64,000 nucleotides of DNA from Gammaproteobacteria bacterium Ga0077554. Its GTDB lineage: Bacteria; Pseudomonadota; Gammaproteobacteria; Ga0077554; Ga007554. The notes under the pieces were generated by a model, which was given only the letters and a program-made list of their open reading frames with translations, was not told the origin of the DNA and did not search any database. The stretch covers positions 1,094 to 65,093 of the forward strand of contig LNFF01000031.1 in the NCBI GenBank assembly GCA_001464585.1, written 5' to 3'. Each line of letters opens with the position of its first letter. Positions within the stretch are counted from its first letter, which is position 1. The position numbers were made by a program, and so were the translations under genes. Below, piece after piece: positions 1,890 to 58,163 of this stretch.

Positions 1890-3762
1890 GTGCAAAATAA
1901 CAACGTATCCGCAAATAGCCTGGTATTTATCGTACTGACTGCGGGACTCATATTGTCGGTATTTGCATGGACTACTGCGACAAACGCTATTCAACGTGAA
2001 GAGCGCCTTGCCTTTCAGGGAGACGCCAACGACATCACGCGCCCACTGATCCGGCGGCTTGACACCTATACTGAAATACTCCATGGCGTACAAGGCCTGT
2101 TTACCGCCAGTCAAAATGTTGGCGCCGATGAATGGCAAAGTTACATTGACGCATTGCAGTTGCAAACACGTTACCCCGGCATACAGACCATGAGTTTTGC
2201 CCGGCGAGTGCCGCATGATCAAAAAGAAAAATACGAACAGCACATACGCCGTATCACCCCTCCCGGAAACCGCAATGATTACTTTGTTGTTGAATACGTA
2301 ACCCCCTACACCGGTAACGAAACCTCACGGGGATCCGAGCTGGGCCGCGAGCCAGTACGCCGTGCAGCACTTGAACAAGCACGTGATACCAACGAGGCCA
2401 GTTTCACAGGCCACATCACTTTAGCTCACGGCCCACCCAACAAGCCGCGCTCCGTCTCTTTTTACCAGTGTATCGCACCGTGTTGCCGCATAACACCGTA
2501 GAACAGCGTCGTGCTGCCTTAATGGGCTTTGTCAACATGGGATTTTACATCAATAGCTTAATGGATGGCACCGACTCCAGCGCCTCGCTCCAGGGCGTTG
2601 ATATTGAAATGTTCGACACGCCAGCCCGCTTGCAGGAAAACCAGGAGCCGCACACAGATATTGCCACCCTCCCCGACACCACGCTGCTATATGACAGGGA
2701 TAACAGCCGCGGCTCGCCGCAAAAACCCGGATCACATCACCACTTCCTGACCACGCTTGAATTTGCCGGACGCCACTGGGCACTCAGCTTTAAAAGCCTG
2801 CCGGGTTACCGAACCAGCGAAGAAAATACGCCACAGATTGTATTCGGTGTTGGCGTGGTCATTACGCTGCTACTGTCCGGCATGATATGGTCACTGGCAA
2901 GTTCACGTGCGCGCGGCTGGAATCTGGCACAGGAAATTACGGCAGAATTACGCAACAGTGAACAACATACCCGCGCCATTATCAGCAATGCACTAGACGG
3001 CATCAGAACCATAAATGAACAAGGCATGATCGCATCTCTCAATCCCGCTGCGGAACGTATGTTTGGCTATACTGAGGAAGGGATAATTGGGAAACACATT
3101 AATATATTAATACCTGATACCTGCCATAATCAGAAAAATAATTTTCTGATTATGCAGACTGACCTGAAAAAAATTGGCAATCATGGCCTGCCGGGGCAAC
3201 GTAAAGACGGCGCCACCTTCCCCCTCGAGTTTGGCATCAGTGAAACAACTCTGGATAACCAGCGCATGTTTATTGGCACGACCCATGATATCACCGAACG
3301 TAAAACGCCTGGAGAATGAATTTGTATCCACGGTGAGCCATGAATTAAGGACACCACTGACGTCTATTCGCGGGGCGTTAGGATTAATCGTGGGCGGCAT
3401 CGCGGGGGAAGTGCCGGAACAGGCGAAAAAACTCGCGGAGATCGCTTGCAATAACAGTGAGCGCCTGGTACGCCTGATTAATGATATTCTGGATATCGAG
3501 AAAATGGAATCCGGAAAAACGGTATTTGGCTGCCATCCGACAGAGATCATCCCGCTTGTGGAAGAGGCGCTGCAAGCTAACCAGGTGTATGCTGAACAAT
3601 ACCAGGTTCGTTTTGTATTAGAAAGCGGGATCCGGACTGGGACTCAGCATCACTAAAGCCATTATAGAAAACCATGGCGGAAAAATTGGCTTTGCAAGTC
3701 ACGCGGGACGAGGCGCCACATTTTATCTTGACATGCCGGAATGGCAAGCACTGGCCGGCTAA
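1890..3762 (+). pseudogene. CHASE-TM-PAS-HisKA-HATPase sensor histidine kinase, disrupted by two frameshifts and an internal deletion
   Basis: The domain order is readable across four frames. CHASE runs 1890 to about 2430 and continues in another frame as ...LRLFLPVYRTVLPHNTVEQRRAALMGFV. PAS ends ...HDITERK at an A4 run (3302-3305). HisKA (RLENEFVSTVSHELRTPL) is in a third frame. At about 3625-3630, ...QYQVRFVLES joins directly to the G2 box GSGLGLSITKAIIENHGGKIGF in a fourth frame, so the N and G1 boxes are missing. Confidence 0.65.
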
Positions 3763-3784
3763 AAAATACAGATCGGGGAAGAAT

Positions 3785-4177
3785 ATGACAACATCGGCAT
3801 TAAAACGTATTCTCTACGTAGAAGATGAGCCAGATATTCAAGCGGTGGCGAAAATCGCTCTGGAGGTTATCGGTGGCTTTACTGTAGTGATGTGCAACTC
3901 TGGAAAACAGGCCGTTGAAACTGCGCCGGACTTTAGTGCTGACCTGATACTGATGGATATCATGATGCCAGATATGGATGGCCCGAGCACCCTCAAAGCA
4001 TTACGCCACATTCCGCAAACTGCTACCACACCGGTGATCTTTATGACCGCCAAAGTTCAACCACACGAAATAAAAGAGTACATAGCTATGGGTGCGATTG
4101 GTGTTATCGCCAAGCCTTTTGACCCTATGATATTATCTCAAACCATCATTACGCTATGGAAAAAAGCCCATGAATAA
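3785..4177 (+). CDS. Single-domain CheY-like response regulator receiver
   Basis: ILYVEDEPDIQ...LILMDIMMPDMDG...IFMTAK... shows the receiver motifs. The start was moved to ATG 3785, because the longer ORF from 3674 overlaps the kinase remnant. Confidence 0.85.
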   Translation: MTTSALKRILYVEDEPDIQAVAKIALEVIGGFTVVMCNSGKQAVETAPDFSADLILMDIMMPDMDGPSTLKALRHIPQTATTPVIFMTAKVQPHEIKEYIAMGAIGVIAKPFDPMILSQTIITLWKKAHE

Positions 4178-10648: not shown

Positions 10649-11137
10649 GTGACAAAAAAAGAAATTAATCTGGCGCAGTTTCTCAGCCATCACCACCTGT
10701 GTGCATCACTCACGGTTACAGAAGTAGAGAATCTGCTTAACTACCTGGAATTTGTGGAGTATAAAAAAGATGATGTCATTGCGGACATCGGTGATGTCGG
10801 CGAAGCCCTGTATTTTGTCGTAAAAGGTGAGGTGGCCCTGATACACGATGACGGTAATCAGACGCTTGAAGTCGGGCGTATGAAAGAAGGTGAATTAATG
10901 GGCGAGATGTCATTTTTTGACCGCCAACCGCGCATGTTGCGCGTGGTCGCCACCACCGACGAAACCCAGCTTCTGAAACTGCCGCGCGTCATGTACCAGC
11001 GCCTGCGCATAGAACGTCCTTATGTGGCGGTAAATCTGCTGGAACATGCTATTATTAGCCTCGACCATCTGGTGCGCCACGTCAGCGAAGCGGAAGCCAG
11101 CCTGACGCGCTATATTTTCGGGCCAGGTAAGCGTTAG
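10649..11137 (+). CDS. Cyclic-nucleotide-binding domain protein
   Basis: The cNMP-binding fold motifs are present (...GDVGEALYFVVKGEV...GELMGEMSFFD...PRMLRVVA). A GTG at 10649 is preceded by AAGGAG. The TAG stop (11135-11137) lies at the boundary of the 141-bp repeat element. Confidence 0.7.
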   Translation: MTKKEINLAQFLSHHHLCASLTVTEVENLLNYLEFVEYKKDDVIADIGDVGEALYFVVKGEVALIHDDGNQTLEVGRMKEGELMGEMSFFDRQPRMLRVVATTDETQLLKLPRVMYQRLRIERPYVAVNLLEHAIISLDHLVRHVSEAEASLTRYIFGPGKR

Positions 11138-11280
11138 AACCTGTTTAGAATCTCGATCAAGGGATGCAGCGCAAGGCGGAAACGGGCGAAAAAGCGGAGT
11201 GTACACGCAGTACATGAGCATTTTGAGCTTGTTTCCAACGCCGCGATGCGCCCTTCAGCGAGATTCTAAACAGGTTCTTA
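11134..11280. repeat. MITE-like palindromic element, copy A (141-bp core flanked by TTA)
   Basis: The core is 11137-11277. Its 19-bp terminal inverted repeat is perfect (gaacctgtttagaatctcg / cgagattctaaacaggttc). TTA is present on both flanks. It is clearly homologous along its whole length to 18312-18458. Confidence 0.85.
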
Positions 11281-11359
11281 GAATTCAACGCCTGGAAAAT
11301 TAATGTATCCCCTCTCCTCAACCCCCTCCCGCTGTGCAGGAGGGGGGGTAAAAATCACT

Positions 11360-12043
11360 ATGCTCAACCCCCTTTACCGACGCGCCGTCTTCACACTGGG
11401 CGCACCTACAGTTGCCTATCTACCCCCGGACAGCGGCTATGAAGTGGCTTTCGCTGGACGCTCCAACGCCGGAAAATCCAGCGCCATCAATAGCATAACT
11501 GGACAAAAAGCCTTGGCGCGGGTCAGCAAAACCCCGGGACGTACCCAGCATATCAATTTTTTTGAGCTGGAAGCCAGCAGTCTGGATTCCACATTAAATC
11601 AGGGTCGTCGGCTGGTTGATCTGCCCGGTTATGGCTATGCCAAAGTAGCGCACAGCGTTAAAGAACACTGGCAGGCCGCGCTCGAAGAATATCTTAATAC
11701 CCGCCAATCACTGCAAGGGCTGGTGATTGTCATGGACATTCGCCACCCGCTCACCCCGTTTGATCAGCAAATGCTGGACACCTGCCAACATGCCCGTCTA
11801 CCCACGCATATTTTGCTGACCAAAGCCGACAAACTCAGCAAAGGCGCGGCGGGCGCCACGCTGCAACAGGTGCGTCGGACGCTTACCGAACGCTACCATG
11901 AAGACGATGCGCCGCTGCCCACGACACAGCTTTTCTCCGCCCTGCGCGGTATCGGTATTGAAGATGTGCATCGGAAATTAGATGAATGGTTAAAACTGAA
12001 AACGGCGATTAAATCCGACGCCGTGACAATAGCAACTGATTGA
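11360..12043 (+). CDS. engB: Ribosome-biogenesis GTPase EngB (YihA/YsxC)
   Basis: G1 motif GRSNAGKSS, then [13 protein letters not shown]3 DLPGYG and G4 LTKADK. The start was moved to ATG 11360. Confidence 0.9.
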
Positions 12044-12053: not shown

Positions 12054-12180
12054 TAAAAAAAGCCCCGGCACCAAAAAGGGGGAAAGCGCCGGGGCATAAA
12101 ACACCCGGCTTGGGGAAACCGGGTGGTAAAAAATTCTGTCCCGGGAGGGATAGGACAGAACAGCGCGAAAATCTCGCAAC
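12054..12180 (-). ncRNA. Candidate small RNA, copy 1 (four hairpins, C-rich loops, intrinsic terminator)
   Basis: Read on the minus strand, there is a 5' hairpin gcgagattttcgc. Next come hairpin ctgtcc-tatCCCTCCcg-ggacag, hairpin cacccgg-tttCCCCaag-ccgggtg and terminator gccccggc-gctttCCCCCtttttggt-gccggggc followed by T8. Confidence 0.6.
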
Positions 12181-12312
12181 CTATACCTGAGACGCCAGGC
12201 TTTCCGTAAAGTTCACGGCAAACACCAGAATTTTTATTGAATGGCCTGATTTGTGCAGGTCGGCAATAGAGACTATATAAAACCCATACGGTTCAAATAG
12301 CTGGGAGGGCAT

Positions 12313-12441
12313 AAAAAAATCCCGGCCTTCATAAAGGGGGAGAAGGCCGGGACAAAGAGCACCCGGTTTGGGGAAACCGGGTGCAAGGGGTTTCCGTCCC
12401 GGGAGGGGGTGGGACGGATAAGTGTGAAAAATCACACTATA
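12313..12441 (-). ncRNA. Candidate small RNA, copy 2 (same architecture as copy 1)
   Basis: Read on the minus strand, there is a 5' hairpin agtgtgatttttcacact. Next come ccgtccc-aCCCCCTCC-gggacgg, gcacccgg-tttCCCCaaa-ccgggtgc and terminator tcccggcc-ttCTCCCCCtttatgaa-ggccggga followed by T7. The stem sequences differ from copy 1 but the pairing is kept. Confidence 0.6.
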
Positions 12442-12490
12442 CTTAGTTAATGGGGATGACGATCTTCAACTTCAAGGGTACAAAATTTCT

Positions 12491-12520
12491 AATTTTAACC
12501 CCGCTACTGCATAAGCGGGG
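12491..12520 (-). terminator. Hairpin immediately after the polA stop codon
   Basis: On the minus strand, ccccgc-ttatgcagta-gcgggg is followed by ttaaaatt, which is only a weak U-tract. Confidence 0.45.
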
Positions 12521-12521: not shown

Positions 12522-15368
12522 TTAATGCGCTTCGTCCCAATTATTTCCAATACCAATATCCACCACCAAAGGTACGGCTAAATTAGCGGCACACCCCATG
12601 CATTCTCTGATGCTGATCACGGCGCGATCAAGCACTCCCTCGGCCACTTCAAACACCAGTTCATCATGCACCTGCATGATCATGCGCATTTCAGTGCCGC
12701 CGTGGGAAACGGCTGTAGAATTACGCGCAATCATCCCATCTGTCTTGAGCATGGCAAGTTTGATTATATCCGCCGCCGTGCCTTGCATGGGCGCGTTGAT
12801 GGCGGCACGCTCGGCATATTGGCGGCGCTGGCCATTGCGTGACTTGATGTCCGGCAAATACAGGCGTCGACCGAACAATGTTTCAACATAACCACGCTCT
12901 GCGGTTTGCGCGCGCGTGGCATCCATAAAAATCTTTACGCCGGGGTAACGTGCAAAGTAACGGTTCATGTATTCCTGTGCGCTGCTGCGATCCACATCCA
13001 GTTGCCGCGCCAGGCCAAAGGCAGACATGCCATAAATCAGACCAAAATTAATGGCCTTGGCGCTGCGGCGTTGATCGCTGCTCACCTGATCAACCGCCAC
13101 ACCAAAAATTTCTGCGGCAGTGGCGCGATGAATATCATCGCCACGCGCAAACGCGCTCAACAACCCGGCGTCTTGCGACAGGTGCGCCATGATGCGCAAT
13201 TCAATTTGCGAATAGTCGGCGGCGACAATTTTATATCCCGGTGGCGCGATAAACGCCTGTCGTATGCGCCGCCCTTCGGCGCTGCGAATCGGAATGTTCT
13301 GCAAATTAGGATTCGAGGAAGACAAGCGCCCAGTGGCGGCCACCGCCTGGTGATACGAGGTGTGTACACGACCGGTGCGCGGATCAATCTGTGCGGGTAA
13401 TTTATCAGTATAGGTTGATTTCAATTTGCTGAGCGTGCGCGACTCCAGAATCAATTTTGGCAAGGGGTGGACGAACGCCAATTCCTGCAAAACTGATTCG
13501 CCGGTGGAGGGTTGGCCAGTGGGCGTTTTCTCGATTACAGGCAAGCCCAGCTTATCAAACAAAATCATCTGGATCTGCTTGGGCGAATCAAGATTAAACG
13601 GCTGCCCTGCAACCACATAAGCTTGCTCCTGAAGGCTCAATATTTGCCGCGCCAGTTCATCGCTTTGACGATGCAACATCTGCGCGTCCACCAGCACGCC
13701 ATTGCGCTCGATGCGTGATAACACCGGCACCAGTGGCATTTCGATGTCATCAAACAATTTCTGCAAGCCCGGCTCGGCGCGGAGGCGCGGCCAGAAGACG
13801 TGATGCAAACGCAGCGTAATATCGGCATCTTCGCAGGCATAGGGCGACGCCTGCTCCAGCGCTATTTGATTAAAGGTGATCTGACGCGCGCCCTTGCCGG
13901 CGATGTCCTCAAAATGCACGGTCTTGTAGTCGAGGTGCGCCAACGCCAGCGTGTCCATGTCATGACGCGAGCCAGTGCTGTTGAGCACATAGGATTCGAG
14001 CATGGTGTCATAGCGTATGCCCGCCAGGGTAATCGCGTAATTGGCAAGCACGCTCATGTCGTATTTCAAGTTCTGCCCGAGCTTCGACCGCATGGCATCT
14101 TCCAGCAGCGGTTTAAGTTGCGCCAGCACTGCGTCACGCGATAACTGATCGGGTGCGCCGGGATAATCATGCGCCAGCGGCACATACGCCGCTTCGCCCG
14201 GCTGCACCGCAAACGACACGCCGACAATTTCGGCCTGCATGTAATCCAGTGAGGTGGTTTCGGTATCAAAGGCAAATAATTCAGCTTGCGCAAGACGCGC
14301 CAACCAGTGGTCGAGTTGCGCCTGCGTGAGCACGGTATCATAGCGGCTGGAAAGTTGCTCCTGCATTTCCAGCACTTCCGCCATCCGTGGCGGTCGAATT
14401 GCAAGCGGAACGGGATCTGTGGCGAGAACTGCAACGGGGACATCACGGGCGATGTCCCCCTGTTGCACAACATCAACACCCTGTTCCTCCTGCCCGACAA
14501 GTTGCGCTGTATCTGCAAGCTGCGCCAACCAGGTCTTGAACTCCATGCGCTTATACCATTCGCGCAAGGTACTTACGTCCGGCGGTTGGCGATGCAGATC
14601 AAGCGGCGCCACCGCCAGTGGCACATCGCAACGAATCGTGGCGAGTTGCCGCGACAATGGCAGCAGGTGCATATTCTCGCGCAGGCTTTCACCGACTTTG
14701 CCACTGATCTGATCCGCATGCGCCACAAGATTGTCCAGCGTGCCATATTCCTGCAACCATTTAGCGGCGGTCTTGGGGCCAACTTTGGGAATGCCAGGAA
14801 TATTGTCTGAGGTATCACCCACCAGCGCCAGGTAATCAATGATCTGCGTCGGCGACACGCCAAATTTTTCAACTACCCCCGGCACATCCAGCGCGGTGTT
14901 GCTCATGGTGTTAATGAGTCTGACGTGGCTGTCAACCAGTTGCGCCATGTCCTTGTCGCCTGTTGAAATCACGGTATGCAATCCGGCCGCCGTGGCTTGC
15001 GTTGCCAACGTGCCAATCACATCATCGGCCTCGACGCCGTCCACCATCAATAACGGCAATCCCATCGCCACGACAATGGCATGCAGCGGCTCGATCTGGC
15101 TGCGCAAATCATCCGGCATGGGCGGGCGGTGCGCTTTATATTGCGCAAACAAATCATCACGAAATGTTTTGCCTTTGGCATCAAACACCACGGCAATCCG
15201 GTCTGGCTGATAATCTGCCAGCAGCTTACGCAGCATATTGGCGACGCCGTACACTGCGCCAGTCGGCTCACCGCGCGAATTAACCAGTGGCGGCAACGCA
15301 TGGAAGGCGCGATACAGATAAGATGAGCCGTCGATCAGCAGCAACGGCTTGGGAGAAGTTTCAGTCAT
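12522..15368 (-). CDS. polA: DNA polymerase I
   Basis: It has the 5'-3' exonuclease N-terminus (LLLIDGSSYLYRAFHA), a 3'-5' exonuclease domain (FAFDTETTSLD) and polymerase motifs (DYSQIELRIMAH, QVHDELVFE). ATG 15368 is preferred over the TTG at 15380. Confidence 0.97.
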   Translation of the reverse strand: MTETSPKPLLLIDGSSYLYRAFHALPPLVNSRGEPTGAVYGVANMLRKLLADYQPDRIAVVFDAKGKTFRDDLFAQYKAHRPPMPDDLRSQIEPLHAIVVAMGLPLLMVDGVEADDVIGTLATQATAAGLHTVISTGDKDMAQLVDSHVRLINTMSNTALDVPGVVEKFGVSPTQIIDYLALVGDTSDNIPGIPKVGPKTAAKWLQEYGTLDNLVAHADQISGKVGESLRENMHLLPLSRQLATIRCDVPLAVAPLDLHRQPPDVSTLREWYKRMEFKTWLAQLADTAQLVGQEEQGVDVVQQGDIARDVPVAVLATDPVPLAIRPPRMAEVLEMQEQLSSRYDTVLTQAQLDHWLARLAQAELFAFDTETTSLDYMQAEIVGVSFAVQPGEAAYVPLAHDYPGAPDQLSRDAVLAQLKPLLEDAMRSKLGQNLKYDMSVLANYAITLAGIRYDTMLESYVLNSTGSRHDMDTLALAHLDYKTVHFEDIAGKGARQITFNQIALEQASPYACEDADITLRLHHVFWPRLRAEPGLQKLFDDIEMPLVPVLSRIERNGVLVDAQMLHRQSDELARQILSLQEQAYVVAGQPFNLDSPKQIQMILFDKLGLPVIEKTPTGQPSTGESVLQELAFVHPLPKLILESRTLSKLKSTYTDKLPAQIDPRTGRVHTSYHQAVAATGRLSSSNPNLQNIPIRSAEGRRIRQAFIAPPGYKIVAADYSQIELRIMAHLSQDAGLLSAFARGDDIHRATAAEIFGVAVDQVSSDQRRSAKAINFGLIYGMSAFGLARQLDVDRSSAQEYMNRYFARYPGVKIFMDATRAQTAERGYVETLFGRRLYLPDIKSRNGQRRQYAERAAINAPMQGTAADIIKLAMLKTDGMIARNSTAVSHGGTEMRMIMQVHDELVFEVAEGVLDRAVISIRECMGCAANLAVPLVVDIGIGNNWDEAH

Positions 15369-15600
15369 GGGTATTCGCAAATCTAATAATTAAAGGATCG
15401 ACAACCAGAAGCAGGTAGCTCCAGGCAAGGGTATCACGGATGCCAGTGGCACCGTAATGCACAACGAGCACAATGCCAGTAACCACCGCCTATGCCGCGC
15501 CGTTTTTTTGGTTTATCATGGGATGAACCGTGCCGATACTATACTAGAAGCCTGTCCACCTACGTGCCCACCATCACTTAACATTGGCAACACACCACTT

Positions 15601-18001: not shown

Positions 18002-18994
18002 GTGCATAAGAAAGCGCATGACCCTCACCGTCAAAGCGGAAAAACGGCTGTCCCGCCAAACCATTACTCCAATCATGACACGGGCTGTCACCCGATTCAC
18101 CCCCGGAGCCGTTATCCGATTGTGGATGCCGCACGGGGCGCAGCTATTGTGCTGATGTTCGTGTATCATTTCATGTTTGATTTACGCTATTACAACGTGG
18201 TGGCGATTGATTTTAATAATGACCCTGTATGGTTAGGATTACGTACGCTGATTGTGGGTCTGTTTTTAGGGGTGATGGGCGTCAGCCTGCACCTGGCCAC
18301 AGCCAGTGGCCTTAGAAACTGTTCACGATCTCGATCAAGGGATGCAGCGCAAGGCAAAAGTGTCCGAAAAAGCGGAGTATACACACAGTATATGAGCATT
18401 TTGAGGACACTTTTAACGCCGCGATGCGCCCTTCAGCGAGATCGTGAGCAGTTTCTTAATCAACGCGCGTTTGTGCGACGGCTATTACAGGTGGTGGGAT
18501 GTGCGGCGCTGGTAAGCATCTCCAGTTACATGATGTTCCCGAAAAGTATGATCTTTTTTGGTATCCTGCATTTTATTGCTGCCGCCAGTGTGCTGGGATT
18601 ACTATTTTACCGCTGGTTCTGGGTCAATTTAGCCATGGGCGTGGCGCTGATTGTGGTGGGGCTGACTGTGCAGCACCCATGGTTTGATCAACCCGGCTGG
18701 CAATGGATAGGGTTAATGACACATAAACCCCTAACCGAAGATTATGTTCCTCTGCTGCCCTGGTTTGGGGTGGTATTATTAGGTCTTTTTGTGGGCAAAT
18801 GGATTTTCTCCACGCCGCCAGTTGCCGGACCCTTTACCGAATGGGCCGGGTCATTGGGCAAAAGCCTGGTGCAATGGCAAGGAAAATCCCGTTTATCCCG
18901 CCTGCTGATCTTTGGTGGAAGGCATAGCCTGCCGATTTATATGCTGCATCAACCGGTATTTTTTGCGATTTTGTATCTGTTTTTAGGGACATAG
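18002..18994 (+). CDS. DUF1624-like (heparan-alpha-glucosaminide N-acetyltransferase-like) membrane protein carrying an in-frame repeat insertion
   Basis: It has the ...VDAARGAAIVLMFVYHFMFDL... motif and multiple TM helices. A hydrophilic 48-codon segment (RNCSRSRSRDAAQGK...QRDREQFL) coincides exactly with MITE copy B. The start codon is uncertain. Confidence 0.6.
   Translation: MHKKAHDPHRQSGKTAVPPNHYSNHDTGCHPIHPRSRYPIVDAARGAAIVLMFVYHFMFDLRYYNVVAIDFNNDPVWLGLRTLIVGLFLGVMGVSLHLATASGLRNCSRSRSRDAAQGKSVRKSGVYTQYMSILRTLLTPRCALQRDREQFLNQRAFVRRLLQVVGCAALVSISSYMMFPKSMIFFGILHFIAAASVLGLLFYRWFWVNLAMGVALIVVGLTVQHPWFDQPGWQWIGLMTHKPLTEDYVPLLPWFGVVLLGLFVGKWIFSTPPVAGPFTEWAGSLGKSLVQWQGKSRLSRLLIFGGRHSLPIYMLHQPVFFAILYLFLGT
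18312..18458. repeat. MITE-like palindromic element, copy B (141-bp core flanked by TTA), inside a CDS
   Basis: The core is 18315-18455. The TIRs are gaaactgttcacgatctcg / cgagatcgtgagcagtttc, with one mismatch. TTA is present on both flanks. Core plus one TTA is 144 bp, or 48 codons, and is open in the host frame. Confidence 0.85.
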
Positions 18995-19005
18995 TGGTTG
19001 GCATA

Positions 19006-20055
19006 ATGGAAGCAAGGCAGAACAACAGGGTCAAGCTCATGGCTTTTTTTAAAAAAAACCCCAATACAGCCACGCCCAGCGTTTCGCTGGAATCACCCCG
19101 CGTCTCGCTGGCATCGCTGAATTGGCAAAGGCCGGGCGGATTCCTGCTGTTGTTATTGCAACCTTTATTACAAAAAACCACATCCAATCTCCGCGCCATT
19201 CTTTGGGTTAACGGGATATTGGTGCTACTAATTGCTTATTACTTAGCCAAATTAACGTGGTTGGCCCTCCCCGCCCCGCCTCAAGAAGACGCGCCACCCC
19301 CTTTAATACAACCTGCATTACAAGGGGCCGTAATGCCAAATCAGCCAAACCCACAAGCCACGGCGGGCAACGCTCTCATCACGCCGCAAGATATAGCCAA
19401 TTGGCATTTATTGGGTGAGGTTAATACGGCAGTGTCGACTAGCGCAGTGGAAAACGCGCCCCCAACCAGCCTGGCCCTCAGCTTGCATGGCATTATCGCC
19501 AGCCGCGACAGAAAAACCGCACGCGCTATTATTGCGGATAGCAGCGGCACTGAAAATTTTTATGCACTTGACGCGCAAGTGCCAGGCGGGGCGGTCCTGA
19601 AGGAAATCCATGCAGATCGTGTTATTCTGTTGCGCGGTGGCGGCCATGAAACATTGATGCTGCCCAAAGATGCGCTGGAGGGTGGCCTGGAGGGCGATGG
19701 GGAGCAGTTCGGCGCACCACCTTTACCGATAGCCAACCCCGATGAAGCCATGCTGGATGAATACCGCGATGCCTTGCAAAATCATCCGGAAACCCTGGCG
19801 GATCGCATTCAACCCATGCCGGTGCATGAAGGAGGAAAATTTGTCGGGTACCGTTTTATCTCGCCGCGCGACCCAACATTATTATCCCGCCTGGGCATGC
19901 AGCCCGGTGACGTGGTGACGGCGGTTAATGGCACACAACTCGACAACCCGCTCAAGGGCATGCAGGTATTGCGCGGGATATCAGCAGAAGATGAAATCAG
20001 GGTGGACACCGTGCGCAATGGCACGCCGCGCTCTTTCATCCTGCGGATGAATTAA
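19006..20055 (+). CDS. gspC: Type II secretion system protein GspC
   Basis: It has a single N-terminal TM helix (ILWVNGILVLLIAYYLAKLTWLAL) and a C-terminal PDZ-like domain (GMQPGDVVTAVNGTQLDNP). It sits directly upstream of gspD. The start is uncertain (GTG 18994, ATG 19006 or ATG 19039). Confidence 0.8.
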   Translation: MEARQNNRVKLMAFFKKNPNTATPSVSLESPRVSLASLNWQRPGGFLLLLLQPLLQKTTSNLRAILWVNGILVLLIAYYLAKLTWLALPAPPQEDAPPPLIQPALQGAVMPNQPNPQATAGNALITPQDIANWHLLGEVNTAVSTSAVENAPPTSLALSLHGIIASRDRKTARAIIADSSGTENFYALDAQVPGGAVLKEIHADRVILLRGGGHETLMLPKDALEGGLEGDGEQFGAPPLPIANPDEAMLDEYRDALQNHPETLADRIQPMPVHEGGKFVGYRFISPRDPTLLSRLGMQPGDVVTAVNGTQLDNPLKGMQVLRGISAEDEIRVDTVRNGTPRSFILRMN

Positions 20056-20080
20056 TTTAAAGCTCCTGCGGATTTTCCAT

Positions 20081-20149
20081 GTCATTCCGCGCATAGCGAG
20101 GAATCGTGGGCAAGATCCCTCTCTTCGCCTGAAATGATAAGGGCGATGA
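20081..20149. repeat. Two GTCAT-type palindromic units in the gspC-gspD spacer
   Basis: gtcattccgcgcatagcgaggaatc (20081-20105) is a near copy of 5861-5885. It is followed by gatccctctcttcgcc...gggcgatgac (about 20113-20149), a longer variant in the opposite orientation. Confidence 0.65.
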
Positions 20150-20198
20150 CAAGAGCCAAAACCGAAGAGATTAATAAAACCACCGGATGGATTGATAA

Positions 20199-22358
20199 AT
20201 GGCACACATCAAAAAACGGGATAACATATTTATGCCTAACATGCGCCGGGCAGGATGCCCAAGTGCGGTGAGCGCAGGGAAGAGCGGCAGCGAAGGGTTC
20301 CGCAAGAACCTCCTGCGGGCAAGCTGTTTGGCCGCATTGTTGACAATTTCACCTTACACGCAGGCGCAGCCGGTTACGTTGAATTTAAAAGATGCCGACA
20401 TTGCGGCGGTGATTGCCACAGTATCAGACATTACTGGCAAAAACTTTATTGTCGATCAGCGCGTCAAAGGCAAGGTAACGATTATTTCCGCGCGCCCGAT
20501 GAGCAAGGAAGAAGTCTATCAAGTGTTTTTATCGCTGCTGGAAGTGAATGGCTTTGCAGCGGTGCCCAGCGGCAAAGTCATCAAAATCATACCTGACGTC
20601 AACGCCAAACAAAGCAGCACACCCGTTGCAACCGACGATCAGCCCGGCAAGGGTGATGAGGTAGTAACGCGCGTCATTCATGTCAAAAATATTTCAGCGA
20701 CACAACTGGTGCCCGTGTTGCGGCCGCTTTCACCGCAACAAGGCCATATGGTGGCCTACCCGGGCACCAATGCGCTGATTATTTCTGATCGCGCTTCAAA
20801 TATCGAACGGCTGACAAAGATCATTGAGCGTATTGATCAGCCCTCGGATACCGCCGACGTAGAAGTAATCGCGCTGCGTCACGCCGCCGCCGCTGAGGTG
20901 GTGCGCATTCTCAATGCGCTGGATCAGGAAGGGCGCAAAAATGATCCGGCCAGCGCCTCGGGCATTACGGATCGTCCGGTATTGATTGCCGATGAGCGCA
21001 CCAATAGCCTGCTGGTGGGCGGTGGACAGAGTGGCCGGTTGCGCCTGCGCGCGCTGATCTCGCATTTGGATACACCACTGCAAACCAGCGGTAACATTCG
21101 CGTGGTATATTTACGCTATGCCAAAGCCAAAGATCTCGTACCAGTACTCACGGGTGTAGCCAGCCAGGTGCAAGACAAATCCAAGCCGGGCGGCGGCGCT
21201 GTGCCGGGCGGTGCTCCGATGAGCATGAGTACGCCCGGCAGTGGCATTAATATTCAAGCTGACGAAAGCATCAATGCACTGGTGATTACCGCACCGCAAG
21301 ATGTGTTTCAGTCGTTGCAATCAGTGATCAGCCAGCTTGATGTGCGTCGCGCACAAGTGCTGGTCGAGGCGGTCATCGTTGAAGTTACCTCCAGCCGCGC
21401 TGCAGAGTTGGGTATCCAATGGGGCACCTTTGACCAATCTACAGGCAGCAGCAAACCAATAGGTATCACCAACTTCACTAATGGCGGCGCGGGATCCAGC
21501 ATTGCAGCCATTGGCGCCGCTATCGCCAATAACACGGCTCCCGCAATTGGTGCAGGTTTGACATTTGGGCTAGGCAAATTCAACAGTGGCGGCTCAAGCT
21601 TCGCCGCCTTGATTCGCGCTCTGGAAGCCGACGGGACTTCCAACATTTTGTCTACTCCTACCTTGCTCACCATGGATAATACTGAGGCAGAAATAGTCGT
21701 GGGGCAAAACGTACCATTCATTACCGGTTCGTTCACCTCACCTGGCGCGACTGGCGGCGCTGCGACCAATCCATTTCAAACAATTGAACGTAAAAATGTC
21801 GGTATTACGCTGAAAATCAAGCCGCAAATCAATGAAGGCAACGCCATCAGGATGGAGATCGAGCAAAAGGTCGACAGCCTCTCTCCCAGTACGGTAGCCG
21901 GTGCCTCTGACTTGATTACCAATACACGCTCAATTCGCACCAATGTCATGGTGGACGATGGCAAGGTGATTGCCTTGGGTGGATTAATTACCGATGATCT
22001 GCGGGAAAGTGTGCAGAAAATTCCCTTGCTCGGTGACTTACCCCTGCTTGGCAGTTTATTCCGTTACAAGAGAAACAGTAAAGACAAAACCAATCTGATG
22101 GTATTTTTGCATCCCGTGATTATGCGTGACGGTGAACTGGCGGAGCGCATGACACATGGTAAATACGAGTTCATGCGCGCGCGGCAAATCGAAGCCAGAG
22201 AAAAAGGCATGGGGATATTACGTAATGAAGAAGCCCCCATGCTGCCTACCATGCAGGACATAATGAAGCTGCCACCGCCCTTCGGCCCATCTTCCGCAGG
22301 CGGCAATGCTGAGCCTGCTGCCAGTCCCGCAGTCGACCCTGCGGTCACTCCACAGTGA
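20199..22358 (+). CDS. gspD: Type II secretion system secretin GspD
   Basis: It has N0-N3 domains (PVTLNLKDADIAAVIATVSDITGKNFIV...) and a secretin domain (…IALGGLITD…IPLLGDLPLLGSLFRYK). The true start is probably downstream (ATG 20241 or an in-frame GTG), because the 5' end is repeat-derived. The signal peptide ends ...PYTQAQ. Confidence 0.9.
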   Translation: MAHIKKRDNIFMPNMRRAGCPSAVSAGKSGSEGFRKNLLRASCLAALLTISPYTQAQPVTLNLKDADIAAVIATVSDITGKNFIVDQRVKGKVTIISARPMSKEEVYQVFLSLLEVNGFAAVPSGKVIKIIPDVNAKQSSTPVATDDQPGKGDEVVTRVIHVKNISATQLVPVLRPLSPQQGHMVAYPGTNALIISDRASNIERLTKIIERIDQPSDTADVEVIALRHAAAAEVVRILNALDQEGRKNDPASASGITDRPVLIADERTNSLLVGGGQSGRLRLRALISHLDTPLQTSGNIRVVYLRYAKAKDLVPVLTGVASQVQDKSKPGGGAVPGGAPMSMSTPGSGINIQADESINALVITAPQDVFQSLQSVISQLDVRRAQVLVEAVIVEVTSSRAAELGIQWGTFDQSTGSSKPIGITNFTNGGAGSSIAAIGAAIANNTAPAIGAGLTFGLGKFNSGGSSFAALIRALEADGTSNILSTPTLLTMDNTEAEIVVGQNVPFITGSFTSPGATGGAATNPFQTIERKNVGITLKIKPQINEGNAIRMEIEQKVDSLSPSTVAGASDLITNTRSIRTNVMVDDGKVIALGGLITDDLRESVQKIPLLGDLPLLGSLFRYKRNSKDKTNLMVFLHPVIMRDGELAERMTHGKYEFMRARQIEAREKGMGILRNEEAPMLPTMQDIMKLPPPFGPSSAGGNAEPAASPAVDPAVTPQ
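20244..20282 (+). repeat. 38-nt core repeat, copy 1 (cgccgggcaggatgcccaagtgcggtgagcgcagggaag)
   Basis: It is nearly identical to the reverse complement of 42033-42071 and partly to 43184-43261. It overlaps the first codons of the longest gspD ORF. Confidence 0.7.
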
Positions 22359-22368
22359 ACGACACGCG

Positions 22369-23943
22369 ATGAACGCAGCCATTGACATCACAACTGGCAT
22401 CACTGCGCTGGAAACCGGGGAACCGATCCTTGATTCATCGTCTGCGCCTTCTCATACGCCAGCGCAGGTCATGGAAAAACGCGTATCGTTTCCCTATGCA
22501 AAGCGCCACGGCGTATTGGTAAAAGGCTGGGAAGACGGCTGCGCAATTGTCGTATGCCGCCCCGATGCGGGCACCTTGGCGCTCACTGAATTACGCCGCT
22601 TTCTCGGCGCGCCGCTGAAACTGCAACAGGCTACACCCCAAGATTTTGAAGCCCTGCTGGCGCAATCTTACGAGCATGACTCGACTCAAGCCATGCAAAT
22701 GATGGGTGATCTCGGCGAAACCATTGATCTGTTCAGCATTGCCCAGCAACTGGCAGAGCCGGAAGATCTTCTCGAAACCGAAGATGATGCCCCGATTATT
22801 CGCCTGATTAACGCCCTGCTCACCGAAGCGATCAAGGAAAACGCGTCGGATATCCACATCGAACCTTTTGAGAATCGTTTGCTGGTGCGCTTTCGCGTCG
22901 ATGGCATGCTGCACGAAGTGCTGGAACCGAAACGGGTGCTCGCGCCGTTGATTGCCGCGCGTATCAAGATCATGGCCAAACTTGATATTGCTGAAAAACG
23001 CCTGCCGCAGGATGGACGCATCTCGTTACGCGTGGCGGGGCGTCCCGTCGATGTGCGCGTCTCCACCCTGCCCTCGGGCCACGGCGAACGCGTGGTGCTG
23101 CGGCTGCTCGACAAACAGGCCGGGCGTCTTAATCTGGAACAGCTTGGCATGTCACCCACCGGGCTGGAAGTCATGCACCGCATCGTTGAAAAACCACACG
23201 GCATTATTCTGGTGACTGGCCCCACTGGCTCCGGTAAAACCACCACGCTGTATGCGGCGCTGACACGGCTCAACACCAAAACGCGCAACATCATGACGGT
23301 GGAAGACCCTATCGAATATTATCTGGATGGCGTGGGACAGACCCAGGTGAACACCAAGGTCGATATGACCTTTGCACGCGGCCTGCGCGCCATTTTGCGT
23401 CAGGATCCTGATGTGGTGATGGTCGGAGAAATACGAGACCTGGAAACCGCTGAAATTGCCGTGCAAGCCAGCTTGACAGGACACATGGTGCTGTCCACGC
23501 TGCATACCAATACCGCTGTCGGCGCAGTCGCGCGGTTGAGTGACATGGGCGTGGAACCCTTTCTGTTATCGTCGAGCCTGGTCGGTGTATTGGCGCAGCG
23601 GTTGGTACGCCTGCTATGTCCGCACTGCAAACAAGCCGTCAGCGCCACGCCCGCTGATTGCAACCTGTTTGGTTTGCCTCATGACCAACCTCCGACACTG
23701 TATAACGCCGTCGGCTGTGAATCATGCAGCTTTTCCGGTTATCGCGGCCGCACCGGTATTTATGAAGTGATTGAAGTGGATCATGCGCTGCGCACCCTGA
23801 TTCATGAGGGCGCGGGTGAACAAGCGCTGGAAACTCACGCCCGCACCATGTCGCCAGGCATCCGCCAGGATGGCCTGCGGCGCGTATTGGCGGGCGTAAC
23901 CACATTGGAAGAAGTGCTGCGTGTTACGCGTGAAGACGCTTGA
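22369..23943 (+). CDS. gspE: Type II secretion ATPase GspE
   Basis: It has Walker A (GPTGSGKTT), Asp and His boxes, Walker B (VVMVGEIRD) and a tetracysteine motif (CPHC...CESC). The start was moved to ATG 22369. Confidence 0.95.
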   Translation: MNAAIDITTGITALETGEPILDSSSAPSHTPAQVMEKRVSFPYAKRHGVLVKGWEDGCAIVVCRPDAGTLALTELRRFLGAPLKLQQATPQDFEALLAQSYEHDSTQAMQMMGDLGETIDLFSIAQQLAEPEDLLETEDDAPIIRLINALLTEAIKENASDIHIEPFENRLLVRFRVDGMLHEVLEPKRVLAPLIAARIKIMAKLDIAEKRLPQDGRISLRVAGRPVDVRVSTLPSGHGERVVLRLLDKQAGRLNLEQLGMSPTGLEVMHRIVEKPHGIILVTGPTGSGKTTTLYAALTRLNTKTRNIMTVEDPIEYYLDGVGQTQVNTKVDMTFARGLRAILRQDPDVVMVGEIRDLETAEIAVQASLTGHMVLSTLHTNTAVGAVARLSDMGVEPFLLSSSLVGVLAQRLVRLLCPHCKQAVSATPADCNLFGLPHDQPPTLYNAVGCESCSFSGYRGRTGIYEVIEVDHALRTLIHEGAGEQALETHARTMSPGIRQDGLRRVLAGVTTLEEVLRVTREDA

Positions 23944-23955
23944 CCCAAGACAATG

Positions 23956-24049
23956 AACCACGGAGGGCACGGAGAACACGGAGTTTTTTAGTGAAGAATA
24001 CGGCTACATTTACATTTTTTTCTCCGTGCCCTCCGTGTTCTCCGTGGTT
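23956..24049. repeat. Large imperfect palindrome built from CACGGAG repeats, between gspE and gspF
   Basis: The arms aaccacggagggcacggagaacacggag (23956-23983) and ctccgtgccctccgtgttctccgtggtt (24022-24049) are separated by a 38-nt loop. Each arm holds three decameric repeats, with the 3-nt spacers swapped between arms. Confidence 0.75.
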
Positions 24050-24067
24050 AAAGGATCAAAATAAGCA

Positions 24068-25285
24068 ATGGCTGCATTTGCATATATAGCACTGGACGCC
24101 ACTGGCCGCGAACGTAAAGGTGTACTGGAAGGCGACACGCCCCGCCAGGTGCGCCAACAGTTGCGCGAACAGGGTTTGGCGCCCGTCAGCGTCGCTGAAG
24201 TGCGCCAAAGCGAAGATAATCGCTCTGCCGCACGTTTTTCATTCGGACGTGGCATCAGCGCCACAGACCTGGCGTTGATTACGCGGCAGTTTGCTACTTT
24301 GGCGCGCTCCGGCCTGCCGATTGAAGAAGCCTTGCAGACCGTGTCACGACAAACCGAAAAGCCGCGCTTGCGTAATATGCTGATGGCGGTGCGCTCGAGA
24401 ATTATGGAAGGCCATTCGCTGGCCACGGCATTGCGCGATTTTCCGCATATTTTCTCGCAATTATACTGCGCCACCGTCGCTGCCGGCGAGCAATCGGGGC
24501 ATCTGGATATTGTACTGGAACGCTTGGCCGACTACACCGAGGCACGGCAAACGCTGCGACAAAAGATGCTGCTGGCGCTGCTTTACCCGTCGATAGTCAC
24601 GGTCGTGGCGATTCTGGTGGTGGTTGCTTTGCTGACCTTTGTGGTGCCACAAGTAGTCGATGTGTTTGATAATATCGGTCAGGAATTACCGATACTGACA
24701 CGCATGCTGATTGCGGTCAGTGACTTTCTAAAAGAGTATGGTGTGGTATTGCTGCTGGCATTAATTGTGCTGGGTTTTATTATTGCCCGAGCGTTACGCC
24801 AACCCGGCCCCAAACAGCAATTTCATCGGTTATTATTAGCATTGCCGCTGATATCGCGGCTGGTGCGCAGCATGAATACAGCGCGTTTTATGCGCACCTT
24901 CAGTATTCTTACTGCCAGTGGTGTGCCAGTGATTGAGGCGATGCGCATTTCGGCGCAGGTGATTTCCAATCTGCCGATGCGTGCGGCGGTAGAAGAAGCC
25001 GCGCGGCGTGTACGTGAAGGTGCAAACTTGCATAAATCGCTTGAGCGTAGCGGCTATTTTCCGCCGATTGCGATTCATCTGGTCGCCAGCGGTGAAGCGA
25101 GTGGCAAACTGGAAAGCATGCTGGATCGTGCCGCGATCAGTCAGGAAAAGGAAATTGAAACCCTGCTGGCAGCGCTGATGGGGCTGTTTGAACCTCTCTT
25201 GATTATCGGCATGGGCGGCGCTGTATTGGTTATTGTCATTGCAATTCTGCTACCGATTTTTGATCTTAACCAACTTGTGAAATGA
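24068..25285 (+). CDS. gspF: Type II secretion inner-membrane platform protein GspF
   Basis: The 405-aa ORF has a duplicated GspF domain and three TM segments. Its position in the operon fits. Confidence 0.93.
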   Translation: MAAFAYIALDATGRERKGVLEGDTPRQVRQQLREQGLAPVSVAEVRQSEDNRSAARFSFGRGISATDLALITRQFATLARSGLPIEEALQTVSRQTEKPRLRNMLMAVRSRIMEGHSLATALRDFPHIFSQLYCATVAAGEQSGHLDIVLERLADYTEARQTLRQKMLLALLYPSIVTVVAILVVVALLTFVVPQVVDVFDNIGQELPILTRMLIAVSDFLKEYGVVLLLALIVLGFIIARALRQPGPKQQFHRLLLALPLISRLVRSMNTARFMRTFSILTASGVPVIEAMRISAQVISNLPMRAAVEEAARRVREGANLHKSLERSGYFPPIAIHLVASGEASGKLESMLDRAAISQEKEIETLLAALMGLFEPLLIIGMGGAVLVIVIAILLPIFDLNQLVK

Positions 25286-25288
25286 TAT

Positions 25289-25798
25289 ATGGAACATACC
25301 TCTATGAAACTAAAAACTTCCAATCCGAATCCGGGACTGGCTCAACGCGGCTGCGCTTGTATCTCACCGCGTGGCTTCACGCGCATTCCACAGCGTGGTT
25401 TCACGCTCATCGAAGTGATGATCGTGGTGATTATCCTGGGCATTCTGGCTTCGTTTATTTTACCACGTATTATGGATCGTCCCGATGCTGCGCGCATCGT
25501 TAAGGCCAAACAGGACATACGCACACTGGTCAGCGCGCTGGATCTCTACAGACTCGATAATTTCAAATACCCTACGACAGATCAAGGCCTGGAAGCATTA
25601 ACCAAAAAACCTGCCGATGCGACACGCTGGAAAGAAGGTGGCTATATCGACCGTCTTCCTAATGACCCGTGGGGCAAACCTTACCAATATTTAAGCCCCG
25701 GCACACAAGGCGCAATTGATGTGTTTACGCTAGGTGCGGATGGACAAGTGGGCGGTGAAGGCAGTGATGCCGATATTGGCAACTGGAATCTTGAATAG
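25289..25798 (+). CDS. gspG: Type II secretion major pseudopilin GspG, with an unusually long leader
   Basis: The prepilin motif QRG|FTLIEVMIVVIILGILA and the conserved GspG body (DLYRLDNFKYPT...LPNDPWGKPYQY...GADGQ) are present. The cleavage site is 29-34 residues from the possible ATG starts (25304 or 25289). Confidence 0.92.
   Translation: MEHTSMKLKTSNPNPGLAQRGCACISPRGFTRIPQRGFTLIEVMIVVIILGILASFILPRIMDRPDAARIVKAKQDIRTLVSALDLYRLDNFKYPTTDQGLEALTKKPADATRWKEGGYIDRLPNDPWGKPYQYLSPGTQGAIDVFTLGADGQVGGEGSDADIGNWNLE
25343..25414 (+). repeat. Three tandem 24-bp units inside the gspG leader
   Basis: The units caacgcggctgcgcttgtatctca / ccgcgtggcttcacgcgcattcca / cagcgtggtttcacgctcatcgaa encode QRGCACIS / PRGFTRIP / QRGFTLIE. 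Only the third keeps G|F...E(+5). Confidence 0.8.
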
Positions 25799-26348
25799 TT
25801 CAAGATCTGTTGACACCCACTCTCAGCGCGGATTCACGCTGCTGGAGTTGCTGCTGGTGATATTGATCATCGGCATTATTTTAAGTTTTGCCGCCTTGTC
25901 GATCGGACGCGGCAATGAGCGTGGAATCGAAGATGAAATGAAACGCCTGGCGGGATTAATTGAGCTGGCGGCACAGGAAGCCACTCTGGAATCACGTGAA
26001 CTAGCCGTGCAGTTCAATGGCAATAAATACGAGTTTCTGGCATTTAAAGACAACAAATGGGCGCGCATCACGGGTGATGAGACATTCCGCCCACGCACGC
26101 TGCCAGAAGAAATGCGTTTAACCGTCAGGATTGAAGATGAACCGGTGAACCTTGGCACAGCAACGTCTCAGGAAACCGAAAACGTACTGCCGCGTATTTA
26201 TCTGTTATCCAGCGGAGAAATAACGCCCTTTCAACTGATCTTGAAAGATGCCACAAACAATCGGGAAGGCGCCAACAGTTATCAACTTAATGGCAATATC
26301 AACGGCAAGATTGAGATGCGCATGATGAACGGCGCACCAGCACCATGA
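25767..26348 (+). CDS. gspH: Type II secretion minor pseudopilin GspH
   Basis: The prepilin motif SQRG|FTLLELLLVILIIGII is present. The start is uncertain (ATG 25767 or TTG 25791). Confidence 0.85.
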   Translation: MPILATGILNSSRSVDTHSQRGFTLLELLLVILIIGIILSFAALSIGRGNERGIEDEMKRLAGLIELAAQEATLESRELAVQFNGNKYEFLAFKDNKWARITGDETFRPRTLPEEMRLTVRIEDEPVNLGTATSQETENVLPRIYLLSSGEITPFQLILKDATNNREGANSYQLNGNINGKIEMRMMNGAPAP

Positions 26349-28325: not shown

Positions 28326-28327
28326 CA

Positions 28328-43013: not shown

Positions 43014-43089
<76 letters not shown>

Positions 43090-57289: not shown

Positions 57290-57345
57290 AATCCCACGCC
57301 ACCACTTAACTGCACAAACAGCGCCGCTATACCCTCACAATCCCC

Positions 57346-58110: not shown

Positions 58111-58163
58111 ATTGATCATCAAAAGATCTTATCAACAACCCCAAGATATGGCATAGTAACCTC

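Follow-up and report, generated by a model that had tools for sequence, protein, structure and literature searches.

Two candidate stress-regulated small RNAs with C-rich loops beside engB in an uncultured gammaproteobacterium

Two paralogous RNA units were identified on the minus strand of the spacer between engB and polA of Gammaproteobacteria bacterium Ga0077554, within a 64,000-nucleotide stretch of contig LNFF01000031.1 (the whole stretch is called the window below). Each unit is composed of four hairpins with three C-rich loops and ends in a terminator and a U7 tail. We consider it very probable that the units are real, independently transcribed genes for structured small RNAs (sRNAs). 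The fuller reading, that they are sibling trans-acting sRNAs that are driven by stress and mask G-rich ribosome-binding sites (RBSs), is probable. The evidence for the RNAs is sequence analysis of uncultured organisms, the source being a metagenome-assembled genome (MAG) recovered from an activated-carbon metagenome. Fold, conservation, covariation, promoter motifs, and synteny were read from the sequences, and from these we infer transcription, sigma factor dependence, and target pairing.

The polA-proximal unit (unit 2), whose 5' end was placed from its promoter and the covariance model boundary, had a predicted folding energy of -66.7 kcal/mol (z = -11.1), and the engB-proximal unit (unit 1) had one of -57.9 kcal/mol (z = -6.4); in both cases, 0 of 200 shuffled sequences folded as well. 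The positions of the units and their parts are listed in Table 1. A sequence-only reading of this spacer had described two minus-strand units with the same four-hairpin layout, C-rich loops in hairpins A and B and in the terminator, stems that diverge between the copies and keep their pairing, and the motif GTATAG before each unit. All of these features were recovered in both copies, in the sequence and in the folds at 12442-12313 and 12182-12055. The T-run that it reported after each terminator in the minus orientation only was likewise found (seven T's each), and the plus strand has no such run. The minus strand is fixed by the U-tails, the promoters, and the frequent G-U pairs, which would be A-C on the opposite strand (pair 77-86 is U-G in 15 of 19 units). 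The linker between hairpins A and B of unit 1 is U rich (AAUUUUUUACC). With up to three mismatches allowed, the hairpin-B motif occurred twice in the 64-kb window, against 0.01 expected occurrences, and covariance models R1 and R2, run with filters off, retrieved only these two copies. The proposal of structured minus-strand RNAs, each with a conserved predicted promoter and terminator, was thus supported computationally.

Base pairing has been maintained while the stems changed. In an alignment of 14 units made with MAFFT and RNAalifold and not fitted to a model, 13 of 31 pairs were compensatory. In the 19-unit alignment A3, which was model-fitted in a way that favors pairing and is built from mutually related sequences, the count was 22 of 31, with compensatory changes in all four helices (5 of 5 pairs in hairpin 0, 6 of 8 in hairpin A, and 6 of 8 in the terminator). 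Standard pairs filled 95.7% of the cells in this alignment, compared with 28 to 55% when the partners were slid by 1 to 3 columns, and none of 500 column shuffles reached any of five covariation measures. The compensatory changes in all four helices bear out the earlier suggestion of selection on RNA structure. Conservation was higher in the loops than in the stems: loop A kept CUCCC, and loop B kept CCC(C)A, without variation in 19 of 19 units, including those at the loci found through synteny only (L006 to L009, L039, and L041); at the loci found by pattern, which were chosen by two loop motifs, loop conservation is circular.

The engB loci of the closer relatives were fetched by protein sequence alone, so this sample is unbiased for the RNA. 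Units recurred in approximately 12 related loci of uncultured gammaproteobacteria, where they face the 3' end of engB in convergent orientation. Among the loci fetched by the engB protein, the units were in tandem in L006, L007, and L008 and single in L009/L010. When 185,579 species genomes were searched with the two loop motifs, nine true loci were obtained, all of them in MAGs labeled Gammaproteobacteria, with one locus per genome. A metagenome scan added a tandem locus with a 95% identical engB (L038) and a divergent unit located away from engB (L025; 54 bits). More distant units convergent with engB were detected in L041 (Thiohalomonas type; 62.7 bits), L039 (53 bits with R1), and L047 (a Thiohalomonadaceae MAG; 33 bits with R2). 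The hairpins and C-rich loops are therefore present in engB-syntenic relatives, as the sequence-only reading required. No related RNA was found at engB in Methylomonas koyamae, a Methylococcaceae MAG, Legionella adelaidensis, Acinetobacter baumannii, Neisseria gonorrhoeae, or an Ectothiorhodospiraceae MAG with an IS110 insertion.

Several further candidates were set aside. L011, L019, L020, and most of the metagenome loci L023 to L036 contained the DNA pattern with covariance model scores of at most 20 bits and were regarded as chance occurrences. A weak R2 match within the window (19.8 bits; 20193-20316, minus strand, opposite the start of gspD) was treated as noise, comparable to the chance match at L020 (17.8 bits). 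L042, from a more distant MAG, scored 19 to 23 bits (R1/R2), near the noise floor of ~20 bits, and matched no Rfam family. This locus has a GC-rich, sRNA-like unit (3767-3960, minus strand) just downstream of polA in an 865-bp polA-engB spacer; by eye, its hairpin loops are CCCAUUCCCAC, CCUGCCCCCAAG, and CCAUCCCCCAUGG, and a terminator is present. In L041, tandem repeats of ~105 bp (GCTGTCATTACGAGGAGCCCCGGCGACGAAGTAATCTCC...) lie upstream of the sRNA at 3560-3917 and reach the contig end.

At all loci except L025, the units converged on the 3' end of engB. On their promoter side, they were bordered by polA in the window, L007, L038, and L039 and by a different gene in L006, L008, L009, L012, and L014 to L018: glutaredoxin (grx) in L006, a glyoxalase-family gene in L008, gyrB in L009 and L012 (and also in L010), and an MsrB-like gene in L014, L016, and L018 (from translations read by eye). 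Because the promoter-side gene varies, the units are not a 3' untranslated region (UTR) of polA, and their durable partner is engB. The engB-polA setting first described for the pair thus holds as its location in the window, and of the two neighbors engB is conserved but polA is not. The gene order in L039 is that of the window: acetolactate synthase, dsbA, a cyclic nucleotide monophosphate (cNMP)-binding gene, engB, the RNA, and polA.

Candidate promoters were compared in the 70-nt stretches preceding the units, which were aligned at the covariance model boundary. Unit 2 is preceded by CCCTTGAA-N15-CCCCATTA (12478-12448), the core of which, CTTGAA-N15-CCCCAT at 12476-12450, is the sole match to CTTGAA-N12-17-CCCCAT in 64 kb. 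The pattern C(C/T)CTTGA(A/G)-N14-15-CCC(C/G)AT(n)T(A) was found at a fixed distance from all unit-2 copies and from all single-copy units of the closer clade. Unit 1 is preceded by TGAACTT-N15-GTCTCA (12215-12188), in which GAACTT-N16-TCTCA (12214-12188) is the single such site in 64 kb, and (G/T)TGAACTT-N15-GTCT(C/G/T)A was found at a fixed distance in all unit-1 copies (five tandem genomes). Variants of the -10 element near the unit-1 type occur in L025 (GTCATA) and L047 (GTCCATA). The two classes differ in what is kept: C-T-T-G-A is conserved in unit-2-class promoters, the following CTT and a TC-containing -10 are not, and in unit-1-class promoters TGAACTT is conserved and the leading CT is not. 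The Escherichia coli sigma32 consensus is reportedly CTTGAA-N13-15-CCCCATnT, and that of sigmaE/AlgU is said to be GAACTT-N16-17-TC(T/A)nA. By this resemblance, the unit 2 promoter is probably of the sigma32 type and that of unit 1 of the sigmaE/AlgU type. The RpoE/AlgU-type promoter proposed earlier for unit 1, GAACTT-N16-TCTCA, stood up to comparison, being conserved in all five tandem genomes. That proposed for unit 2, a weak GAAGTT-N16-ATTAA, did not and gives way to the conserved, sigma32-type CTTGAA-N15-CCCCAT.

Within the window, a sigma32-type weight matrix derived from sRNA promoters of the relatives alone ranked the unit-2 promoter first. The site ranked third among ~0.5 million positions lies upstream of an Hsp20/IbpA-type gene and is a near-consensus sigma32-type sequence (CCCTTGAA-N15-TCCCATTT, 57344-57374). 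Hsp20 is a classic sigma32 target, and DegP/HtrA is a classic sigmaE target. The window also contains a DegP/HtrA-type protease gene with a sigmaE-like upstream site (Table 1); the pattern GAACT-N16-18-GTCTCA occurs at two sites, unit 1 and this gene, against 0.02 expected, a rarity that is overstated, the DegP comparator having been spotted by eye and the pattern written afterwards. A scan for sigma70 promoters found no site in the spacer; the same scan mislabels hairpin B as terminator-like.

The history of the pair can be outlined from sequence identities. Unit-1 copies clustered with each other across genomes (83% identity), as did unit-2 copies (80%), and unit 1 and unit 2 inside one genome shared 59 to 68%. 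The duplication therefore predates the five tandem genomes, and the copies have not been homogenized. Unit 2 is nearer to the single-copy units than unit 1 is (70% versus 64%) and has hairpin 0 and a C-rich linker in common with them, and single-copy genomes carry the sigma32-type unit. The sigmaE-type unit looks like an older duplicate in which the sigma factor was switched. The -35 elements of both promoter classes overlap in CTTGAACTT. The single-copy promoter of L009 (3270-3300) and L012 (minus strand) is CCTTGAACTTTTGCAAGAACACCCCATCTAA, and it fits both CTTGAA-N14-CCCCAT (sigma32) and GAACTT-N16-TCTAA (sigmaE). Given this overlap and these dual-fitting promoters, a sigma switch would need few changes; conversion of the overlapping -35 element and replacement of the -10 element would be enough. 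The L009/L012 promoter may be a dual-input one, perhaps the ancestral state before duplication.

In the mechanism that we propose, the paralogues would act as ~130-nt minus-strand sRNAs of a family linked to the 3' end of engB, and the siblings would differ chiefly in their inputs: unit 1 would be produced under envelope stress (sigmaE), and unit 2 would be produced under cytoplasmic protein-folding stress (sigma32, heat). Each RNA would expose three C-rich loops, namely, CCCUCCC (containing CCUCC, the anti-Shine-Dalgarno [anti-SD] core of 16S rRNA), UUUCCCCAA, and CCCCC. These loops would pair with G-rich or SD-like translation initiation regions and block ribosomes, and the candidate target start regions would be of the GGGAGGG or UUGGGGAA type. 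Blocking of RBSs has been proposed for sRNAs of the CcsR, anti-hemB, and toxic-sRNA types. It has been shown for sX13 (PMC3771888). By analogy with such RNAs, we lean, with some reserve, toward anti-SD-type pairing as the mode of action.

Several observations weigh against this reading, in addition to the composition of alignment A3, the circularity at the pattern-found loci, and the by-eye choice of the DegP comparator described above. The opposite strand folds almost equally well (mean, -56.9 versus -60.3 kcal/mol), a parallel to the ambiguous strand first reported for hemB/anti-hemB (PMC1950547). The sigma assignment consists of resemblance to the E. coli/Pseudomonas consensus and one in-window comparator per class. 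The strict motifs have a 7 to 10% chance of turning up somewhere in 64 kb; the support for the predicted promoters is their positional conservation, not the rarity of the motifs. A sigmaE weight matrix, built from four relatives and too rigid, did not place the DegP-like site among its top 12. Target pairing is generic, in that any SD sequence is G rich, and an RNAduplex comparison of the loops with all candidate start regions in the window gave no usable targets, with spurious starts and stem sequence dominating.

Alternative explanations were also weighed. It is unlikely that both units are duplicated ErsA orthologues, in which case the sigma32 motif of unit 2 would be coincidental and its promoter a sigma70 or weak sigmaE one. 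ErsA sits in the same spacer, and the terminator stem CCCGGnCUUC/GAAGnCCGGG is closely like its own. Its Rfam model (Pseudomon-1, RF01719) scored 29.1 bits with unit 2 (model positions 34-107), 17.4 bits with the other unit, and at most 31.5 bits in the relatives (L009), but these values are well under the gathering score of 50 and cover the model partially (~32-116). At the promoter, GAA(C/G/T)TT overlaps the -35 element of unit 2, and L009 and L012 admit the sigmaE spacing as well; yet the unit-2 promoters keep C-T-T-G-A and CCC(C/G)AT rather than the CTT of GAACTT or a TC-containing -10, and the same sigma32-type motif precedes the Hsp20 gene of the window. The absence of a sigma70-like site from the spacer and the variable adjacency of polA in the relatives also argue against this explanation.

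It is rather improbable that the RNAs titrate a protein or another RNA, as a C-rich-loop sponge or as a decoy for G-rich sRNAs or tRNA fragments. Three similar loop motifs displayed on stable stems form a sponge-like layout, the duplex scan gave no specific mRNA target, and the related ncS04 binds Hfq. However, sX13, the closest tested analogue, pairs loop to mRNA and does so independently of Hfq, the loops of the units contain the exact anti-SD core CCUCC, and the locus has no linked candidate for a partner protein. A function in cis, with the hairpins serving as terminators or insulators or as stabilizers of the engB or polA mRNA 3' ends and having no role in trans, appears very improbable. 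In its favor, the flanking genes converge on the units, the end of unit 1 is 11 nt away from the engB stop codon, both strands fold well, and hairpin B was scanned as terminator-like. Against this, four hairpins per unit exceed the needs of termination, the loops outdo the stems in conservation, and each unit has its own conserved promoter; the variable upstream gene excludes a polA 3' UTR, the plus-strand terminator lacks a T-run, and the L025 unit stands away from engB.

That the units are generic repeats of the repetitive extragenic palindrome (REP) or miniature inverted-repeat transposable element (MITE) kind, or small-protein genes, is hardly credible: a 43-amino-acid open reading frame (ORF) called by a public gene caller (12181-12312, minus strand), an 84-amino-acid ORF (12181-12435), and further palindromes in the window can be cited in its favor, but there are only two copies in 64 kb and one locus per genome (nine genomes) in a constant orientation to engB, as expected from the sequence-only reading, and the ORFs have no Pfam match, are absent from L006 and L008, and undergo substitutions that keep base pairs, not codons. 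The 43-amino-acid ORF starts right after the unit-2 terminator, and conserved DNA upstream of the unit-1 promoter accounts for a partial similarity to it in L007; this ORF is probably spurious.

If the trans-acting, stress-driven reading is right, the pair could form a two-input noncoding arm of the proteotoxic stress responses (sigma32 and sigmaE) that dampens mRNAs with G-rich RBSs, and the engB-linked C-rich-loop sRNAs could share an ancient origin; we offer this broader proposal only tentatively, as a doubtful one. The sigmaE responses include the sRNAs MicA, RybB, MicL, and ErsA, and we know of no established sRNA arm of the gammaproteobacterial sigma32 regulon. In the units, a conserved sigma32-type promoter stands directly before a conserved structured RNA, and a paralogue appears to have switched to a sigmaE-type one. 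Driven by sigma32, unit 2 would represent the first family of regulatory sRNAs dependent on this factor to be described in Gammaproteobacteria; the sigma32-dependent sRNAs named in a 2026 review are from Rhodobacter only (PMC13501541). The pair would also be a natural example of siblings that divide roles through promoter rewiring. On the same premise, the units, anti-hemB/ncS04, ErsA, and perhaps sX13 would be descendants of one proteobacterial sRNA gene beside engB whose promoter was repeatedly rewired.

The genes on either side of the spacer, which is 478 bp long, are convergent. The engB start was set at 11360 (MLNPLYRRA) by homologue alignment, and the mechanical 246-amino-acid ORF from 11303 is ~19 codons too long. 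An engB protein of identical sequence occurs on activated-carbon metagenome contigs, and the nearest named homologues (57 to 60% identity) are from Methylococcaceae, Ectothiorhodospiraceae, and Thiohalomonas. The engB leader contains a hairpin (11322-11348, plus strand; -20.1 kcal/mol) in which CCCCCTCCC (11322-11330) pairs with GGAGGGGGGG (11339-11348). Its C arm is the loop-A motif of the sRNAs, and its G arm is complementary to loop A. The hairpin is present in the window and L006 only and is absent from L007 to L009; as a lead only, competition of the sRNA with this cis structure is conceivable. An inverted repeat (11136-11278) in the interval from the cNMP-binding gene to engB has 28-nt arms that are 93% complementary and 87 nt apart and looks like an inserted palindromic element.

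Elsewhere in the window, the leader of the DegP-like gene contains an inverted repeat with 33-nt arms (58029-58061 and 58084-58116; 94% complementary) that occurs once in the window and in none of the fetched loci; an operator, an attenuator, and an inserted palindrome are possibilities. A type II secretion cluster occupies 18994-30947 on the plus strand (GspC, D, E, F, K, L, and N). Other genes include cheR, a cheW-like gene, flgA, a ycgR-like gene, phoR with a PstS-like gene, cysS, and gltX, and there are two tRNA genes (43014-43086 and 43299-43372).

Table 1. Positions in the window of the two RNA units, their predicted promoter elements, and the genes discussed with them
Feature	Coordinates	Strand	Remarks
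engB/yihA	11360..12043	+	TIGR03598, 3.7e-66; conserved convergent neighbor
Unit 1 sRNA, engB-proximal, ~128 nt	12055..12182	-	R1, 134.8 bits; R2, 128.6 bits
Unit 1 terminator hairpin and U7 tail (12061-12055)	12055..12095	-	Loop UUCCCCCUUUUU
Unit 1 hairpin B	12102..12125	-	Apex UUUCCCCAA
Unit 1 hairpin A	12133..12161	-	Loop AUCCCUCCC at 12151-12143
Unit 1 hairpin 0	12162..12181	-	From the fold
Unit 1 -10 element GTCTCA	12188..12193	-	Predicted sigmaE/AlgU type
Unit 1 -35 element TGAACTT	12209..12215	-	Predicted sigmaE/AlgU type; invariant in 5/5 unit-1 copies, L025, and L047
Unit 2 sRNA, polA-proximal, ~130 nt	12313..12442	-	R1, 144 bits; R2, 137 bits
Unit 2 terminator hairpin and U7 tail (12319-12313)	12313..12353	-	Loop UCCCCCUUUAU
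Unit 2 hairpin B	12359..12384	-	Apex UUUCCCCAA
Unit 2 hairpin A	12393..12418	-	Loop ACCCCCUCCC at 12410-12401, includes anti-SD core CCUCC
Unit 2 hairpin 0 (AGUGUGA/UCACACU, loop UUUU)	12421..12438	-	From the fold
Unit 2 -10 element CCCCATTA	12448..12455	-	Predicted sigma32 type
Unit 2 -35 element CTTGAA (within CCCTTGAA)	12471..12476	-	Predicted sigma32 type
Terminator-like hairpin	12499-12520		Adjoins polA end
polA	12522..15380	-	NF004397; upstream neighbor
Hsp20/IbpA-type gene	57457-57909	+	Pfam HSP20, 5.6e-27
DegP/HtrA-type protease gene	58164-59543	+	Preceded by GAACTG-N17-TCTCA, 57973-58000

The window units matched no Rfam family at its gathering score. Below those scores, the best match was to ar14 (RF02344; 35 bits, gathering score 58.8), followed by CcsR1 (RF02791; 29.7 bits, gathering score 65.3), ErsA (given above), sX13 (RF02232; 28.9 and 24.9 bits, gathering score 50), anti-hemB (RF02837; 28.3 and 24.6 bits, gathering score 49.5), Betaproteobacteria toxic sRNA (RF02278; 20.4 and 15.1 bits, gathering score 50), and Spot 42 (RF00021; 13.8 bits, gathering score 80). 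At relaxed thresholds, many C-rich-loop families reach 14 to 35 bits, a range in which sequence alone cannot separate homology from convergence. Membership in the CcsR/cuckoo or Betaproteobacteria toxic sRNA family, raised by the sequence-only reading, thus comes down to resemblance (29.7 against 65.3 bits and 20.4 against 50 bits). CcsR/cuckoo RNAs, known from Alphaproteobacteria, share with the units tandem hairpin arrays and C-rich, anti-SD-like loops, and the C-rich CcsR1-4 of Rhodobacter are RpoH/sigma32 dependent (PMC13501541). However, their hallmark loop CCUCCUCCC is absent from the units, the corresponding loops of which are CCCUCCC or CCCCCUCCC, and CcsR is processed from the 3' UTR of a small-protein gene, whereas the units have their own predicted promoter and terminator and an upstream gene that is polA or an unrelated one. 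The toxic sRNA is a double hairpin of ~60 nt, compared with four hairpins and ~130 nt in the units.

The engB/polA spacer houses other sRNAs. Spot 42 of Enterobacterales and Vibrionales occupies the same polA-yihA/engB slot, and in Alteromonadales its linkage to yihA outlasts that to polA (bioRxiv 10.64898/2026.07.10.737749). It lacks C-rich loops, is repressed by CRP-cAMP, and depends on Hfq, and it is a positional analogue only. ErsA of Pseudomonas, which together with ncS04 was compared with the units through Rfam models only, lies in the polA-engB spacer, is sigma22 dependent, and has a U-rich domain II (PMC8575079). In addition to its location and terminator stem, it resembles the units in the C-rich loops of its 3' hairpins; the U-rich linker of unit 1 recalls domain II. 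The motif GAACTT-N16-TCTCA, which precedes unit 1 but not unit 2, may mark a promoter of the sigma22/AlgU type. The units differ from ErsA in their 5' part, which is unrelated, and in the sigma32-type promoter of unit 2, and ErsA is single copy.

For mechanism, sX13 is the best model by analogy. This Hfq-independent RNA of Xanthomonadaceae, encoded downstream of polA, has three stable stem-loops with 4C, 4C, and 5C loops; its repression of mRNAs acts through G-rich RBS motifs and is abolished by mutations of the loops (PMC3771888). The three stable stem-loops with apical CCCC or CCCCC motifs are common to sX13 and the units. In place of hairpin 0, sX13 has an unstructured 5' region; it is single copy and linked to polA, not engB, and its promoter is not known to belong to the sigma32 or sigmaE type.

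The most consistent match was to anti-hemB, the full model of which (1-81) was covered at 22 to 37 bits in 11 of 12 units at the seven loci scanned, and L039 scored 50.1 bits, just over the gathering score. This RNA of Burkholderia and other Betaproteobacteria has the layout of the units: a CCUCCC-looped hairpin is followed by another hairpin and then by a terminator and its U tail. It is characterized by a position upstream of hemB and antisense to that gene. The units have an extra 5' hairpin, are ~25 nt longer, occur in tandem with no hemB nearby, and carry sigma32- and sigmaE-type promoters that are not described for ncS04. Anti-hemB is ncS04 of Burkholderia cenocepacia, a 105-nt RNA that was confirmed by Northern blotting, copurifies with Hfq, and sits in the arrangement '<- -> <-' between BCAL0264 and BCAL0265, convergent with its 3' neighbor (PMC5688073, PMC4603805). 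A 2026 preprint places anti-hemB near ResB, and genes for ResB and cytochrome c are neighbors of engB in L041 and L047. The orientation of ncS04 and the ResB context suggest that BCAL0265 may be engB.

The kind of RNA described here, a trans-acting C-rich-loop sRNA at the engB/polA slot, is thus already known. What is new is a candidate family that scores below Rfam thresholds and has a further hairpin at the 5' end, a conserved tandem pair with apparently different stress-sigma promoters, and a predicted sigma32-dependent sRNA in Gammaproteobacteria. The family grades into anti-hemB and has its slot in common with ErsA, sX13, and Spot 42, which suggests that the engB/polA spacer has housed sRNAs durably since ancient times and that separately named families may be related. 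From their sequences, the window units most plausibly belong to the anti-hemB lineage as a divergent branch in Gammaproteobacteria; by analogy, they most plausibly work like sX13, with unit 1 regulated like ErsA.

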